Shown: piece by piece, positions 1 to 13,957 of the stretch
Numbering within the stretch: the stretch's first letter is position 1
How the letters are laid out: every line of letters starts with the position of its first letter
Assembly: GCF_050920415.1 (NCBI RefSeq)
Contig: NZ_CP169309.1
DNA length: 64,000 nt
From: Escherichia coli
Lineage (GTDB): Bacteria; Pseudomonadota; Gammaproteobacteria; Enterobacterales; Enterobacteriaceae
Strand: one strand, 5' to 3'
Made by a program: the position numbers and the translations under genes
The notes under the pieces: model-generated
What the model was told of the DNA's origin: nothing
What the model saw: only the letters and a program-made list of their open reading frames with translations
Databases searched by the model: none

Positions 1-51
1 TGAAGGCACGGGGGTACGCCATCCTGTGCAGGCTTTACTGGAGATTATTAA

Positions 52-462
52 ATGATATGGAAACGAAAAATCACCCTGGAAGCACTGAATGCAATGGGTG
101 AAGGAAACATGGTGGGGTTGCTGGATATTCGCTTTGAACATATTAGTGATGACACCCTTGAAGCGACAATGCCAGTAGACTCGCGGACAAAGCAGCCTTT
201 CGGGTTGCTGCATGGAGGGGCATCCGTGGTACTGGCCGAAAGTATCGGTTCCGTTGCCGGTTATTTATGTACCGAAGGTGAGCAAAAGGTGGTTGGTCTG
301 GAAATCAATGCTAACCACGTCCGCTCGGTACGAGAAGGGCGGGTGCGCGGCGTATGCAAACCGTTGCATCTCGGTTCGCGTCACCAGGTCTGGCAGATTG
401 AAATCTTCGATGAGAAAGGGCGTTTGTGCTGTTCGTCACGATTGACGACCGCTATTTTGTGA
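52..462 (+). CDS. menI: 1,4-dihydroxy-2-naphthoyl-CoA thioesterase (hotdog fold), MenI/YdiI
   Basis: 136-aa ORF; translation recognised as E. coli YdiI/MenI; ATG at 52. Confidence 0.9.
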   Translation: MIWKRKITLEALNAMGEGNMVGLLDIRFEHISDDTLEATMPVDSRTKQPFGLLHGGASVVLAESIGSVAGYLCTEGEQKVVGLEINANHVRSVREGRVRGVCKPLHLGSRHQVWQIEIFDEKGRLCCSSRLTTAIL

Positions 463-561
463 CGTTGTCACCAGAAAAGTGTGACGCATATTGCTTTTGG
501 TCATTATCTGCACAGTAAACGGTGGTATACTGTGCAGGTCTTGTCTAAAAGCGAGGATGCT

Positions 562-750
562 ATGTCTACTCAACTTGATCCCACCCAGCTGGCCATTGAA
601 TTTTTACGTCGTGACCAGAGCAATCTTTCACCTGCCCAATATCTCAAACGTCTGAAACAACTAGAACTTGAATTCGCTGACTTGCTTACTCTCTCTTCTG
701 CTGAATTAAAAGAAGAAATCTACTTTGCCTGGCGTTTGGGCGTGCATTGA
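562..750 (+). CDS. ydiH: small protein YdiH (62 aa)
   Basis: In-frame ATG at 562 preceded by SD gaggat; the 89-aa ORF from 481 begins at GTG with no SD, so the shorter form is preferred; sequence MSTQLDPTQ... recognised. Confidence 0.8.
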   Translation: MSTQLDPTQLAIEFLRRDQSNLSPAQYLKRLKQLELEFADLLTLSSAELKEEIYFAWRLGVH

Positions 751-904
751 TCCTGACGTAATGCCGCGAGTTCGCCAAATCGGCCTGGATTAATCTTCGT
801 CCAGGTTCGAGGGCCTTCTTAATACTGCTTTTCTACCCGCCTGATAACGTTCAAAAATAATACAAATCGCAGTTTGTGCTAAAACAGCGGCTTAGCTTTA
901 TGAG

Positions 905-1018
905 ACTATTCTTATCGCCCCTTCAAGAGCTAAGCCACTGTGAGTGCCGGAGATAAGCGCCGGATGGGGTAGAAACCCTTAAGCCTGTGATGCACAGACT
1001 TAAGGGTTTTCTTATTTC
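905..1018 (+). ncRNA. rydB: candidate small RNA in the ydiH-sufA intergenic region (position consistent with RydB); boundaries uncertain
   Basis: Structured non-coding stretch (inverted repeats gcttagc/gctaagc) ending in a strong intrinsic terminator; RydB is known to lie between ydiH and sufA; exact ends not determinable by eye. Confidence 0.3.
973..1018 (+). terminator. rho-independent terminator (hairpin aaacccttaag / cttaagggttt followed by a T-run)
   Basis: 11-bp perfect stem at 973-983 and 999-1009, then ttttcttatt. Confidence 0.6.
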
Positions 1019-1038
1019 TGAACGCTGCACTTTTTTAC

Positions 1039-1053
1039 CTATCTCTTAAATAG
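1039..1053. promoter_or_regulatory. OxyR-like half-site (CTAT-N7-ATAG) upstream of sufA
   Basis: ctat ctcttaa atag; suf is a known OxyR target with a distal upstream site; only a partial motif seen. Confidence 0.3.
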
Positions 1054-1101
1054 TCATTTTCAATACAACTTTTTCTTTTTCATCTCAGCCTTAATGCTCC
1101 T

Positions 1102-1120
1102 TAGATAATAATCATTATCT
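1102..1120. promoter_or_regulatory. AT-rich Fur-box-like / IHF-like motif (tagataataatcattatct) in the distal suf promoter
   Basis: Resembles the Fur consensus GATAATGATAATCATTATC; also compatible with the IHF site reported in this region. Confidence 0.35.
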
Positions 1121-1238
1121 AACAATGAGATACCTAATTCTTAGCGTGCCTGTTAACCCACACATCAGGGTCTATGCTTATTAAAAGCAGGCAAAAAGCA
1201 TGTTTTACGGTAAAGCCCCTGCGTTTGCTGGGTTGAAC

Positions 1239-1253
1239 TGATAATCATTATCA
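1239..1253. promoter_or_regulatory. Fur box overlapping the sufA core promoter (tgataatcattatca)
   Basis: Close match to the Fur consensus, about 46 bp upstream of the sufA ATG; suf is a known Fur-repressed operon. Confidence 0.55.
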
Positions 1254-1298
1254 CTAACATGCTGTTATACGCTGAAAGCGATGAAGTGAGGTAAATCG

Positions 1299-1667
1299 AT
1301 GGACATGCATTCAGGAACCTTTAATCCACAGGATTTCGCCTGGCAGGGCTTAACGCTGACACCCGCAGCCGCTGTCCACATCCGTGAGCTGGTGGCAAAG
1401 CAACCAGGTATGGTCGGCGTGCGCTTAGGCGTGAAGCAAACGGGCTGCGCGGGATTTGGCTATGTGCTCGACAGTGTTAGCGAGCCAGACAAAGACGATC
1501 TGCTGTTTGAACATGACGGCGCGAAGCTGTTTGTCCCGCTGCAAGCGATGCCGTTTATTGATGGCACGGAAGTCGATTTCGTTCGTGAAGGACTTAATCA
1601 GATATTCAAATTTCACAACCCGAAAGCCCAGAATGAATGTGGCTGTGGCGAAAGCTTTGGGGTATAG
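1299..1667 (+). CDS. sufA: Fe-S cluster assembly A-type carrier SufA
   Basis: 122-aa ORF; C-terminal CGCGESF motif; first gene of the suf operon. Confidence 0.95.
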
Positions 1668-1675
1668 GCGGTACT

Positions 1676-3163
1676 ATGTCTCGTAATACTGAAGCAACTG
1701 ACGATGTCAAAACCTGGACCGGCGGCCCGCTGAATTATAAAGAAGGATTCTTCACCCAGTTAGCCACTGATGAGCTGGCAAAGGGGATAAACGAAGAGGT
1801 GGTGCGCGCAATATCGGCGAAGCGTAATGAGCCGGAGTGGATGCTGGAGTTTCGTCTCAAAGCTTATCGCGCATGGCTGGAGATGGAAGAGCCGCACTGG
1901 CTGAAAGCGCACTACGACAAGCTGAATTATCAGGAATACAGCTACTACTCAGCACCATCGTGCGGTAATTGTGACGACACTTGCGCGTCGGAACCCGGCG
2001 CGGTGCAGCAAACTGGCGCGAACTCCTTTTTAAGTAAAGAGGTGGAGGCGGCGTTTGAGCAGTTGGGCGTTCCCGTACGGGAAGGCAAAGAAGTGGCAGT
2101 GGATGCCATTTTCGACTCTGTTTCGGTTGCCACCACTTATCGTGAAAAACTGGCGGAGCAGGGAATTATTTTCTGTTCCTTTGGCGAGGCGATCCACGAT
2201 CACCCGGAACTGGTGCGGAAATATCTCGGCACCGTGGTGCCGGGGAATGACAACTTCTTTGCCGCGCTTAATGCGGCGGTGGCCTCTGACGGTACATTTA
2301 TTTATGTGCCTAAAGGCGTGCGCTGCCCGATGGAACTCTCCACCTATTTTCGCATTAACGCGGAAAAAACCGGACAGTTTGAGCGCACCATTCTGGTGGC
2401 CGACGAAGACAGCTACGTCAGCTACATTGAAGGCTGTTCCGCTCCGGTGCGTGACAGCTATCAGTTACACGCGGCGGTGGTGGAAGTCATCATCCATAAA
2501 AACGCCGAGGTGAAATATTCCACGGTACAAAACTGGTTCCCTGGCGATAACAACACCGGCGGTATTCTCAATTTCGTCACCAAGCGTGCTTTGTGCGAAG
2601 GCGAAAACAGCAAAATGTCATGGACGCAATCAGAAACCGGGTCAGCGATTACGTGGAAATATCCCAGCTGCATTTTGCGCGGCGATAACTCCATTGGTGA
2701 GTTTTACTCGGTGGCACTGACCAGCGGTCATCAGCAAGCGGATACCGGCACCAAGATGATCCACATCGGTAAAAACACCAAATCGACCATTATCTCGAAA
2801 GGGATCTCTGCCGGACACAGCCAGAACAGTTATCGCGGCTTAGTGAAAATCATGCCGACGGCAACCAATGCACGTAACTTCACCCAGTGCGACTCAATGC
2901 TGATAGGCGCTAATTGTGGGGCGCATACTTTCCCGTATGTCGAATGTCGCAATAACAGCGCGCAACTGGAGCACGAGGCAACGACATCACGTATTGGTGA
3001 AGATCAACTGTTTTACTGCCTGCAACGCGGGATCAGCGAAGAAGACGCCATCTCGATGATTGTTAACGGTTTCTGCAAAGACGTGTTCTCAGAACTGCCG
3101 CTGGAATTTGCCGTTGAAGCACAAAAACTCCTCGCCATCAGTCTTGAACACAGCGTCGGATAA
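1676..3163 (+). CDS. sufB: Fe-S cluster assembly scaffold SufB
   Basis: 495 aa from ATG at 1676 ([10 protein letters not shown]...); the 508-aa ORF from 1637 is an upstream extension. Confidence 0.93.
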
Positions 3164-3172
3164 GGAATAAAC

Positions 3173-3919
3173 ATGTTAAGTATTAAAGATTTACACGTCA
3201 GCGTGGAAGATAAAACTATCCTGCGCGGATTAAGCCTCGACGTTCGTCCCGGCGAAGTTCACGCCATTATGGGACCCAATGGTTCGGGGAAAAGTACCTT
3301 ATCGGCAACGCTTGCCGGACGCGAAGATTATGAAGTGACGGCTGGCACGGTTGAGTTTAAAGGCAAAGATTTGCTTGCGCTGTCGCCGGAAGAACGTGCA
3401 GGCGAAGGCATCTTTATGGCCTTCCAGTATCCGGTGGAAATACCCGGCGTCAGTAACCAGTTTTTCCTGCAAACGGCACTTAATGCGGTACGCAGCTATC
3501 GCGGCCAGGAAACGCTCGACCGCTTTGATTTTCAGGATTTGATGGAAGAGAAAATCGCTCTTCTGAAAATGCCGGAAGATTTATTAACGCGTTCGGTAAA
3601 CGTTGGTTTTTCCGGCGGCGAGAAAAAGCGCAACGATATTTTGCAAATGGCGGTGTTGGAACCGGAGTTATGCATTCTTGATGAGTCGGACTCCGGGCTG
3701 GATATTGACGCATTAAAAGTGGTTGCCGATGGCGTGAACTCGCTGCGTGACGGCAAGCGTTCATTCATCATTGTTACGCACTACCAACGCATTCTCGACT
3801 ACATCAAGCCTGATTACGTCCATGTGCTGTATCAGGGACGAATTGTGAAATCCGGCGATTTCACGTTGGTCAAACAACTGGAGGAGCAGGGTTATGGCTG
3901 GCTTACCGAACAGCAGTAA
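3173..3919 (+). CDS. sufC: Fe-S cluster assembly ATPase SufC
   Basis: 248 aa; Walker A GPNGSGKST and ABC signature LSGGE. Confidence 0.95.
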   Translation: MLSIKDLHVSVEDKTILRGLSLDVRPGEVHAIMGPNGSGKSTLSATLAGREDYEVTAGTVEFKGKDLLALSPEERAGEGIFMAFQYPVEIPGVSNQFFLQTALNAVRSYRGQETLDRFDFQDLMEEKIALLKMPEDLLTRSVNVGFSGGEKKRNDILQMAVLEPELCILDESDSGLDIDALKVVADGVNSLRDGKRSFIIVTHYQRILDYIKPDYVHVLYQGRIVKSGDFTLVKQLEEQGYGWLTEQQ

Positions 3920-5165
3920 CGCGCTGCAACAGTGGCATCACTTGTTTGAAGCCGAGGGTGCAAAACGCTCCCCGCAAGCACAGCAGCATTTACAACAATT
4001 GCTGCGTACCGGACTGCCGACACGTAAACATGAAAACTGGAAATATACGCCGCTGGAAGGGCTGACCAATAGCCAGTTTGTCAGTATTGCGGGGGAGATA
4101 TCCCCACAGCAGCGTGATGCCTTAGCGTTAACGTTAGACGCCGTGCGGCTGGTGTTTGTCGATGGACGTTACGTGCCCGCGCTGAGCGATGCAACTGAAG
4201 GCAGCGGATATGAAGTGAGCATTAACGATGACCGCCAGGGGTTACCCGACGCTATTCAGACGGAAGTGTTTCTGCATTTGACGGAAAGCCTGGCGCAAAG
4301 CGTGACGCATATCGCCGTGAAGCGCGGTCAACGACCGGCAAAGCCATTGCTGTTAATGCATATTACCCAGGGCGTGGCAGGTGAAGAGGTGAACACTGCC
4401 CATTACCGACATCATCTGGATCTGGCGGAAGGTGCCGAAGCGACGGTGATCGAACATTTTGTCAGCCTTAATGATGCTCGTCATTTCACCGGAGCGCGCT
4501 TTACCATCAATGTCGCAGCGAACGCCCACTTGCAGCATATCAAGCTGGCGTTTGAAAACCCGGTCAGTCACCACTTTGCCCATAACGATTTGTTGCTGGC
4601 TGACGATGCTACCGCATTTAGCCACAGTTTCCTGCTTGGTGGCGCAGTGTTACGACACAACACCAGTACGCAACTCAATGGCGAAAACAGCACGCTGCGG
4701 ATCAATAGTCTGGTGATGCCGGTGAAAAACGAGGTGTGTGATACCCGTACCTGGCTGGAACACAATAAAGGTTTTTGTAACAGCCGACAGTTGCACAAAA
4801 CTATCGTCAGCGATAAAGGCCGCGCGGTATTTAACGGTTTGATCAACGTCGCGCAGCACGCCATCAAAACGGATGGTCAGATGACCAACAATAATCTGCT
4901 GATGGGCAAACTGGCAGAAGTGGATACGAAACCGCAGCTGGAAATCTATGCAGATGATGTGAAATGCAGCCACGGCGCGACGGTGGGGCGTATTGATGAT
5001 GAACAGATGTTCTATCTGCGCTCGCGTGGGATCAATCAGCAGGATGCCCAGCAGATGATCATTTACGCCTTTGCTGCCGAACTGACGGAAGCACTGCGTG
5101 ATGAGGGGCTTAAACAGCAGGTGCTGGCCCGAATCGGTCAACGACTGCCAGGAGGTGCAAGATGA
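3894..5165 (+). CDS. sufD: Fe-S cluster assembly protein SufD
   Basis: 423 aa; start overlaps the sufC 3' end by 26 nt. Confidence 0.93.
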
Positions 5166-6382
5166 CTTTTTCCGTCGACAAAGTGCGGGCCGACTTTCCG
5201 GTGCTTTCTCGTGAGGTAAACGGTTTGCCGCTGGCTTATCTCGACAGCGCCGCCAGTGCGCAGAAACCAAGCCAGGTGATTGACGCCGAGGCCGAGTTTT
5301 ATCGTCATGGCTACGCGGCGGTGCATCGCGGTATTCATACCTTAAGCGCCCAGGCGACCGAGAAAATGGAGAACGTGCGCAAGCGTGCTTCGCTGTTTAT
5401 CAATGCCCGTTCCGCGGAAGAATTGGTGTTTGTCCGCGGCACCACGGAAGGCATTAACCTGGTCGCCAATAGCTGGGGCAACAGCAACGTGCGAGCGGGC
5501 GATAACATCATCATCAGCCAGATGGAGCACCACGCTAACATTGTTCCCTGGCAAATGCTTTGCGCGCGAGTGGGTGCAGAGCTGCGTGTGATTCCTCTCA
5601 ACCCCGACGGTACGTTGCAGCTGGAGATACTGCCTAATCTGTTCGATGAGAAAACTCGCCTGCTGGCAATTACCCATGTCTCCAACGTGCTTGGGACAGA
5701 AAATCCGCTGGCCGAGATGATCACCCTTGCACACCAACATGGCGCAAAAGTACTGGTGGATGGCGCTCAGGCGGTGATGCATCATCCGGTGGACGTTCAG
5801 GCGCTGGATTGCGATTTTTACGTGTTCTCCGGGCATAAACTGTATGGCCCCACTGGAATTGGCATTCTTTATGTCAAAGAAGCCTTGTTGCAGGAGATGC
5901 CGCCGTGGGAAGGGGGCGGTTCTATGATCGCCACCGTAAGCCTGAGTGAAGGCACTACCTGGACTAAAGCACCGTGGCGGTTTGAAGCCGGTACACCCAA
6001 TACCGGAGGTATCATTGGTCTTGGCGCGGCACTCGAGTATGTTTCGGGGCTGGGGCTTAATAACATAGCCGAGTATGAACAGAATCTGATGCATTACGCG
6101 CTGTCACAGCTGGAATCTGTACCGGATCTCACTCTCTATGGTCCCCAGAACAGACTTGGCGTTATTGCTTTTAATCTTGGTAAACACCACGCCTATGATG
6201 TTGGCAGTTTTCTCGATAATTACGGCATTGCTGTGCGTACCGGCCATCACTGCGCTATGCCATTAATGGCCTATTACAACGTTCCTGCCATGTGTCGGGC
6301 GTCGCTGGCTATGTATAACACCCATGAAGAAGTGGATCGTCTGGTGACCGGCCTGCAACGTATTCACCGTCTGCTGGGATAA
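5162..6382 (+). CDS. sufS: cysteine desulfurase SufS (PLP-dependent)
   Basis: 406 aa; ATGA overlap with sufD; SGHK PLP-lysine motif. Confidence 0.95.
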
Positions 6383-10793: not shown

Positions 10794-10992
10794 GTTCAGT
10801 TGCAGTCCAGTTAATCATTCTAAATAACAACTGCTGAAATTATACAAATTTCGGTATGTATTTTAATTTATAGCGCTAATGTTATTTTTATTTTCTGTAA
10901 TAAAAGTCACAAATAATTGTCGCTTAAGTTAAATTTATTTTAAATGATAATAAATATCAGTTCACTTATAATTTCTTGCTTTGTGATTTTAA

Positions 10993-11207: not shown

Positions 11208-13957
<2,750 letters not shown>

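Follow-up and report, generated by a model that had tools for sequence, protein, structure and literature searches.

Two systems already described in Escherichia coli adjoin each other upstream of sufA: the small RNA RydB (Rfam RF00118; E. coli b4430; tpe7, IS082) and the sufA promoter, PsufA (Lee 2004; Outten 2004; Yeo 2006; Lee 2008; Mettert and Kiley 2014). According to reviews, Fur represses suf, apo-IscR, on a type-2 site in the -35 region, activates it, and OxyR occupies a site far upstream of PsufA and needs an IHF bend to reach the promoter; NsrR has also been reported to repress suf. We analyzed the DNA upstream of sufA in one strand of a 64-kb stretch (the window), of which positions 1-1700 are the menI-ydiH-rydB-sufA region of E. 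coli, with all four genes on the + strand. A reading made earlier from the sequence alone had described dense regulatory architecture over positions 905-1298. With a probability of about 0.9, we conclude that this interval consists of two independent, already described units that stand side by side in Escherichia, the rydB gene and the suf control module. RydB and the Fur/IscR/IHF/OxyR architecture of PsufA are known, textbook material, and the window reproduces both. The finding therefore adds little to the biology of iron-sulfur cluster biogenesis in E. coli, and its modest value lies in cleaning up the record and in providing leads.

Positions 750-1300 of the window match one E. coli chromosome with 100% identity and occur in 5421 of 5426 complete genomes of this species. 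The K-12 annotation of the same stretch lists sufA (b1684), rydB (b4430; 1764713-1764780, minus strand) and ydiH (b1685), and pairwise alignment places window positions 905, 917, 977, 1267 and 1299 at K-12 coordinates 1764780, 1764768, 1764708, 1764418 and 1764386, respectively. For the comparative analysis, 80 sufA loci were fetched from different Enterobacteriaceae species, and counts on the suf module are given per 81 loci; the rydB alignment comprised 25 sequences, and 24 loci were scored as orthologs. Positions 1-6000 were searched against all Rfam families. Sequence identity, motif matches, conservation and covariation of RNA pairs were determined in this work, RNA 3' ends were taken from published Term-seq data, and the roles of Fur, IscR, OxyR and IHF come from the literature. 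A generic scan for sigma-70 promoters and terminators missed PsufA, the rydB promoter and the rydB terminator alike, because the rules of the scan are strict and not because the features are absent.

RydB boundaries, terminator and distribution

The sole significant Rfam match was rydB (RF00118), at 917-977 on the + strand, with 83 bits (gathering score, 50; E = 3e-19) and spanning the full model (positions 1-61 of 61). This bears out the RydB identity that the sequence-only reading had suggested for a structured stretch, and for which it had named an Rfam search over 880-1020 as the check. The window shares with the described RydB the full model, the flanking genes ydiH and sufA, the strand and the 3' end, and differs from K-12 rydB in one loop base (T941 instead of A) and in nothing essential. 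The RefSeq annotation of K-12 rydB maps to window 905-972 (68 nt) and is offset at both ends from 917-977. Published Term-seq data for K-12 contain a single rydB 3' end, at 1764708 or window 977, with 2.2 and 4.1 million reads, compared with 0.08-0.18 million reads for lpp. This very abundant 3' end at 977 indicates that an RNA of the size of RF00118 is made in vivo. Position 977 coincides with the 3' boundary of the Rfam match and is base five in the 5' arm of the terminator hairpin. The database coordinates (905-972) thus conflict with both the covariance model and the 3' end as measured (917-977), and we place the boundaries of the RydB RNA at 917-977 and not at 905-1018. The rydB annotation of Salmonella is 105 nt long, as is the stretch between the Rfam start and the terminator's end.

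The strong intrinsic terminator that the sequence-only reading had placed at 973-1018 proved robust in both fold and covariation. Its arms (973-989 and 993-1009) are 17 nt each with one mismatch and a 3-nt loop, followed by the tail TTTTCTTATTT; it was because of the internal mismatch that a simple terminator scan missed the hairpin. The 17-bp stem folds with -22 kcal/mol (z = -6.8 relative to shuffles), and in the 25 orthologs 12 of the 17 pairs have changed on both sides, with 93.6% of cells paired. C. koseri, two other Citrobacter and Pseudenterobacter have, at this place, a hairpin that differs in sequence. The 12 compensatory pairs and the replacement hairpins together identify the hairpin as a selected RNA stem. 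It lies downstream of and outside the RF00118 model, yet is kept as one unit with rydB. Within RydB itself, the core 917-972 is nearly invariant across the alignment, and the two internal hairpins never vary and are uninformative on covariation. The closing stem has changed on both sides in three of its five pairs (96.8% of cells paired), with GCTCC/GGAGC in Leclercia and Silvania and ATCCC/GGGAT in Pseudenterobacter. For the whole structure, 95.7% of cells are paired versus 88.5% in shuffles, with 15 compensatory pairs, and none of 500 shuffles reached the observed values.

These data bear directly on the annotated coordinates, under which the 68-nt RydB (905-972) would be the true primary transcript and the hairpin would have no connection with it and could be, for example, a palindrome bound by protein or a bidirectional insulator. 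RefSeq and EcoCyc both give 905-972, and Term-seq shows no 3' end at the U-tract. The measured end, however, is at 977 and not at 972, the Rfam model spans 917-977, and upstream of 905 there is no conserved -10 element for a start at that position. Compensatory change at 12 pairs and replacement by a different sequence in four genera are expected of an RNA stem and not of a DNA operator, and the hairpin always travels with rydB, even where the two lie 0.8-1.9 kb from sufA. We therefore regard the annotated coordinates as a highly improbable description of the transcript.

With boundaries at 917-977, the mature 61-nt RydB is probably the processed product of a terminated transcript of ~100 nt. 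Transcription of rydB would be halted at the 17-bp intrinsic terminator, the hairpin would then be removed by endonucleolytic cleavage, and 3' trimming would stall 7-8 nt past the closing stem, leaving the 61-nt core 917-977 as the accumulating species. The RydB tail past the closing stem is 7-8 nt long, as expected from a stalled 3' exonuclease. The Term-seq tables list only 1764708 and no other 3' end between sufA and ydiH, including the U-tract near K-12 1764667. The lack of a U-tract end fits rapid processing and does not demonstrate termination; termination at the hairpin is deduced from structure and conservation, since no U-tract end was observed. The description of the element as ended by a terminator in the sequence-only reading accordingly holds for the rydB gene and fails for the mature RNA, which ends at 977. 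A mature RNA without its own conserved terminator implies a processing step, and this fits the weak Hfq association of RydB. The suf control region starts 19 bp after the hairpin, and the terminator may serve to shield it from strong rydB transcription.

Upstream of G917, positions T901, G902, G904, A905 and T909 are invariant in the 25 sequences and form the extended -10 pattern TGnGAYTAT, with G917 located 7 nt downstream of the hexamer. The 15 nt upstream vary (885-897 are free), and no recognisable -35 element was found for rydB. From this pattern we infer that rydB is transcribed from its own conserved extended -10 promoter, with a start at about G917.

Alternatively, RydB could derive from the ydiH (or menI-ydiH) mRNA as a stable fragment cleaved out of its 3' untranslated region, with the hairpin 973-1018 as the terminator of that mRNA. 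The gene lies on the strand of ydiH, 167 nt past its stop codon; the sequence between them holds only a weak terminator-like hairpin (794-813) that has no Term-seq 3' end; the 3' end of mature RydB is clearly processed; and the generic scan found no sigma-70 promoter for rydB. Opposed to this origin, the conserved TG and GAYTAT elements and an upstream block sit where a promoter for G917 is expected, whereas the sequence from ydiH to that block is not conserved. In Leclercia (locus L067) and Silvania (locus L075), rydB occurs without ydiH, directly after menI, and several Citrobacter have unrelated sequence upstream of it, which rules out an obligate tie between RydB and ydiH. Long-range pairing of rydB with upstream sequence in E. 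coli is not conserved either. Taken together, these observations make an origin from the ydiH mRNA improbable and favor a rydB gene with its own promoter.

The pairing with upstream sequence was considered in its own right as a structured RNA larger than rydB and enclosing it. The E. coli sequence lets 884-897 pair with 928-941, 848-865 with 1007-1024, and 830-838 with 967-975, and the stretch 828-1026 folds with z = -4.1. We rejected this structure because the upstream partners sit in non-conserved columns; the 884-897/928-941 helix was paired in 45% of cells, the same as in shuffles. A small open reading frame within rydB, beginning at ATG 899, was ruled out by one-base indels that shift the frame between genera.

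The comparison of loci also separates rydB from the suf module. Within 2 kb upstream of sufA, rydB was found in 24 of the 80 loci, with nhmmer and Rfam in agreement (70-83 bits). Its carriers are Escherichia, most Citrobacter, Salmonella, some Leclercia, Silvania confinis and Pseudenterobacter, and a test of 16 loci from Enterobacter, Klebsiella, Kluyvera and others did not reveal it. In Citrobacter spp. and Salmonella enterica subsp. (loci L016, L017, L020 and L025), rydB and its terminator lie 0.8-1.9 kb upstream of sufA and not 0.3 kb, and the OxyR-IHF-IscR-Fur module has stayed with sufA. Because the module remains at sufA in loci where rydB and its terminator are this distant, the two units are separable.

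The suf control module

The suf module keeps the same elements and spacing across the 81 Enterobacteriaceae loci, and the window shows the same element order and spacing as the described E. coli PsufA; at 1112, where the known promoter has C, the window has T, and this makes the IHF-site flank resemble a Fur box more closely. The features listed by the sequence-only reading were all present where it had placed them or within a few bases. An OxyR-like CTAT-N7-ATAG at 1039-1053 stands in register across genera as part of a longer motif (1028-1064), an AT-rich motif at 1102-1120, described as Fur- or IHF-like, belongs to a palindrome of 9/4/9 nt at 1101-1122, and a Fur box was correctly located over the core promoter (1239-1253). 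The identification of the region as RydB plus a suf promoter controlled by Fur, OxyR, IHF and IscR, which that reading had proposed, is in agreement with the Rfam match, the K-12 annotation, the literature and the phylogenetic footprints. Its list lacked the IscR site (1212-1237) and the block 1166-1187, both of which lie inside the interval 905-1298.

We assign the transcription start to A1267 because only this base as +1 fits the published mutant numbering; it lies 32 nt before the sufA ATG. According to strain descriptions in a 2025 paper, the Fur* mutation turns the ATA at -26 to -24 into TAT, and the mutants of the IscR site carry a deletion of -56 to -51 or a change of C-50 to G. With A1267 as +1, the Fur* mutation maps to 1241-1243, inside the Fur operator, and the published IscR-binding mutants fall inside 1212-1237. 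In the promoter core, CACTAACAT is invariant in 28 genera. The IscR site agrees at all 24 of 24 specified positions with the type-2 consensus, which we take to be AWARCCCYTSNGTTTGMNGKKKTKWA, and was the only match in the 64 kb at up to 4 mismatches. Apo-IscR would activate sufA transcription from this site (-55 to -30), which overlaps the -35 hexamer.

The Fur operator between the -35 and -10 hexamers, TGATAATCATTATCA, is a perfect 15/15 match to the 7-1-7 repeat TGATAATNATTATCA, and at this fixed spacing the motif occurs with at most 2 mismatches in 78 of the 81 loci. The whole window contains three matches to the 7-1-7 motif at this threshold, compared with 0.18 expected. On an operator so placed, Fe2+-Fur would block both RNA polymerase and IscR.

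Beyond the suf promoter, the third of these matches, TGATAATAAATATCA (10945-10959, 1 mismatch), is intergenic and lies ~250 nt upstream of an open reading frame of 208 aa on the + strand (11208-11834), which by map position is probably ydhY. The suf promoter also carries an 11-nt inverted repeat, AAAAGCATGTT / AACATGCTGTT, at 1194-1204 (-) and 1256-1266 (+), whose arms resemble the NsrR half-site AANATGCATTT by eye at 9/10 and 8/10; the arm at 1256-1266 overlaps the sufA -10 hexamer and the transcription start.

Far upstream, the OxyR site follows the four-element consensus (ATAGnTnnnAnCTAT-N7-ATAGnTnnnAnCTAT, with ATAG/CTAT elements at 10-bp spacing) at 13 of 20 positions in the window, and its tetranucleotides are CTAT (1039-1042), ATAG (1050-1053) and CAAT (1061-1064, CTAT in most genera). 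CTAT-N7-ATAG occurs once in the 64-kb window versus 0.38 expected by chance and is by itself not significant; its weight comes from its fixed position across genera. At the homologous position the full motif is found with at most 7 mismatches of 20 in 70 of the 81 loci, some Citrobacter having 3-4; the second, third and fourth elements are exact in 58, 79 and 48 of the 81 loci, respectively, and the leftmost is never conserved. The IHF core WATCAANNNNTTR is likewise conserved in register, being perfect at the homologous position in 45 of the 81 loci (e.g., AATCAATGCATTG) and within 1 mismatch in a further 24; the chance of up to 1 mismatch at a random position is 0.5%. The 20 nt on its 5' side are 73% A+T. 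Oxidised OxyR at -239 to -203 would be brought to the promoter by the IHF-induced bend, centred at about -141. The original footprints, from 2004, reportedly extend over -236/-197 for OxyR, -156/-126 for IHF and -56/-35 for ORE-III, in agreement with the element positions given here.

The distal AT-rich motif, for which the sequence-only reading had left the choice between Fur and IHF open, is the A/T flank of this conserved IHF site. The interval of 1102-1120 given by that reading covers the flank correctly and stops at the first base of the IHF core (1120-1132). The rival interpretation is a real second Fur operator at the palindrome 1101-1122, where competition between Fur and IHF would block OxyR activation in plentiful iron. 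The box at 1106-1120 within the palindrome matches the 7-1-7 motif at 13 of 15 positions (2 mismatches, and 14/19 to the 19-mer consensus) and is one of the three window matches noted above; over the 12 nt ATAATCATTATC it repeats the core of the proximal operator exactly, and it abuts the IHF core. The Fur-like match is confined to Escherichia, however, and is absent in E. albertii, Citrobacter, Salmonella, Enterobacter and Klebsiella. By contrast, the IHF core in this position is conserved. The box is also polymorphic within E. coli: position 1112 is T in the window and C in K-12, which raises the mismatches to 3 and breaks the 12-nt operator copy. Over 1086-1146, 1987 of 5411 E. coli genomes (~37%) are identical to the window, and ~63% of E. 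coli genomes, as well as K-12, have a weakened Fur-like box. In published work, a single Fur-site mutation near the promoter abolishes Fur control. We consider a second, strain-specific operator unlikely. Because the IHF core is conserved in register and the Fur-like match is Escherichia-only and polymorphic, comparative footprinting settles the distal site as IHF, as judged from sequence conservation, and not Fur.

Several observations weigh against the division of the interval into rydB and the suf module as drawn here. The 61-nt RydB core folds no better than shuffled sequence (z = -0.08), and in Term-seq neither a full-length RydB of ~100 nt nor an end at the U-tract was seen. The start at G917 rests on the Rfam boundary and promoter geometry, and RefSeq gives 905. 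The IHF core of Escherichia, that of the window included, departs from the consensus at 2 positions.

Table 1. Coordinates of features at the menI-ydiH-rydB-sufA locus in the window; positions relative to the sufA transcription start are in parentheses.
Feature	Position	Strand	Basis
menI	52-462	+	Gene of locus
ydiH	562-750	+	Gene of locus
Marbox-like element GCAGTTTGTGCTAAA, candidate class II MarA/SoxS/Rob site	869-883	+	Weight matrix, conservation
Putative rydB extended -10, TGaGACTAT	901-909	+	Invariant positions in alignment
Mature RydB small RNA, 61 nt	917-977	+	Rfam RF00118, Term-seq 3' end, covariation, orthologs
rydB intrinsic terminator, hairpin 973-1009 and T-tract to ~1018	973-1018	+	Fold, covariation, conservation
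OxyR binding site	1028-1064 (-239 to -203)	.	Motif in register across loci
AT-rich palindrome TTAGATAAT-N4-ATTATCTAA, 9/4/9 nt	1101-1122	.	5' A/T flank of IHF site
IHF core site TAACAATGAGATA	1120-1132 (-147 to -135)	+	Conserved in register
Invariant block CAGGGTCTATGCTTATTAAAAG	1166-1187 (-101 to -80)	+	Conservation; sigma-S type -10 resemblance
IscR type-2 activator site	1212-1237 (-55 to -30)	+	Consensus match, published mutants
-35 hexamer TTGAAC	1233-1238 (-34 to -29)	+	Overlapped by IscR site
Fur operator	1239-1253 (-28 to -14)	.	7-1-7 palindrome in -35/-10 spacer
sufA -10 hexamer TAACAT, 1255-1260 (-12 to -7), and start A1267	1255-1267	+	Invariance, mutant numbering
Shine-Dalgarno GAGG	1288-1291	+	Precedes sufA
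sufA coding sequence	1299-1667	+

Candidate additional inputs to the locus

Comparative footprinting exposed one deeply conserved block in this heavily studied promoter. Within the block at 1166-1187, also given as CAGGGTCTATGCTTAnTAAAAG and including the stretch GTCTATGCTTA, all 81 loci carry the pattern GTCTAT[G/C]CTTA, with constant spacing to the other suf sites. The part of the suf promoter literature that we covered named no regulator for -101 to -80. The consensus of sigma-S type -10 elements is KCTAYRCTTAA, with a C at -13. TCTATGCTTA in the block matches it at 10 of 10 positions, including the C at -13, and the start predicted from it, A1185, is an A in 80 and a purine in all 81 of the loci. 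The motif taken alone occurs twice in the window versus 0.56 expected, which is not significant, and only its conservation carries weight. The block may be a second promoter of the sigma-S type with a start at about A1185, or the operator of an unassigned regulator. The dps promoter, which is served by OxyR during growth and, once in stationary phase, by IHF together with sigma-S, shares with suf an OxyR site, an IHF site and a -10 element with C at -13; the sigma-S-like element of suf would form a promoter of its own, 82 bp upstream of the mapped start.

A leader peptide from ATG 1175 was rejected as an explanation of the block, as many genera meet a stop 3-12 codons on, and in four loci the ATG is replaced by ATC. 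We also compared the conserved blocks, by eye only, with sites for CRP, sigma-54, sigma-E, FadR, MntR, Fis, Lrp and NsrR, and none fitted. For NsrR at the block 1166-1187, the half-sites fit better, again by eye, at 1194-1204 (-) and 1256-1266.

Upstream of the putative rydB extended -10, a marbox-like element in a conserved block, GCAGTTTGTGCTAAA, stands out in a weight matrix that we built from 87 sites of a published Salmonella table of MarA/SoxS/Rob/RamA chromatin immunoprecipitation sequencing (ChIP-seq). It scores 12.9 bits, which ranks it third of 127,972 window positions and above the median training site, and scores of at least 10.9 bits were found in 22 of the 24 orthologs. The element is in forward orientation and centred 41 bp upstream of G917, in agreement with the published geometry of class II MarA/SoxS/Rob positions. 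Class II promoters such as micF are alike in orientation, in the centre at -41, in the absent -35 and in the adjoining TG-extended -10, a resemblance and not a demonstrated membership. The validated lpxC site, GCTCTTTGTGCTAAA, is identical to the rydB element at 13 of 15 positions. In a microarray study RydB was among the SoxR-dependent, paraquat-induced RNAs. The Salmonella ChIP-seq table contains no MarA/SoxS/Rob/RamA peak at the rydB locus, and a preprint that places RydB among the CRP-regulated small RNAs counts against the marbox interpretation. We present the candidate marbox at rydB as a lead and not as a finding.

Jointly, a fifth cis element of suf at -101 to -80 and regulation of rydB as a class II target of SoxS/MarA/Rob are a tentative proposal that we hold to be possible and rather doubtful. 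If true, general stress and superoxide would be further inputs to a locus regarded as completely mapped.

Further upstream at this locus, a near-perfect inverted repeat, CTGCACAGTA-N10-TACTGTGCAG, is found at 504-541, between the menI stop and the ydiH start; it gave rise to a spurious mir-1278 match in the Rfam search, at 22 bits versus a gathering score of 61.

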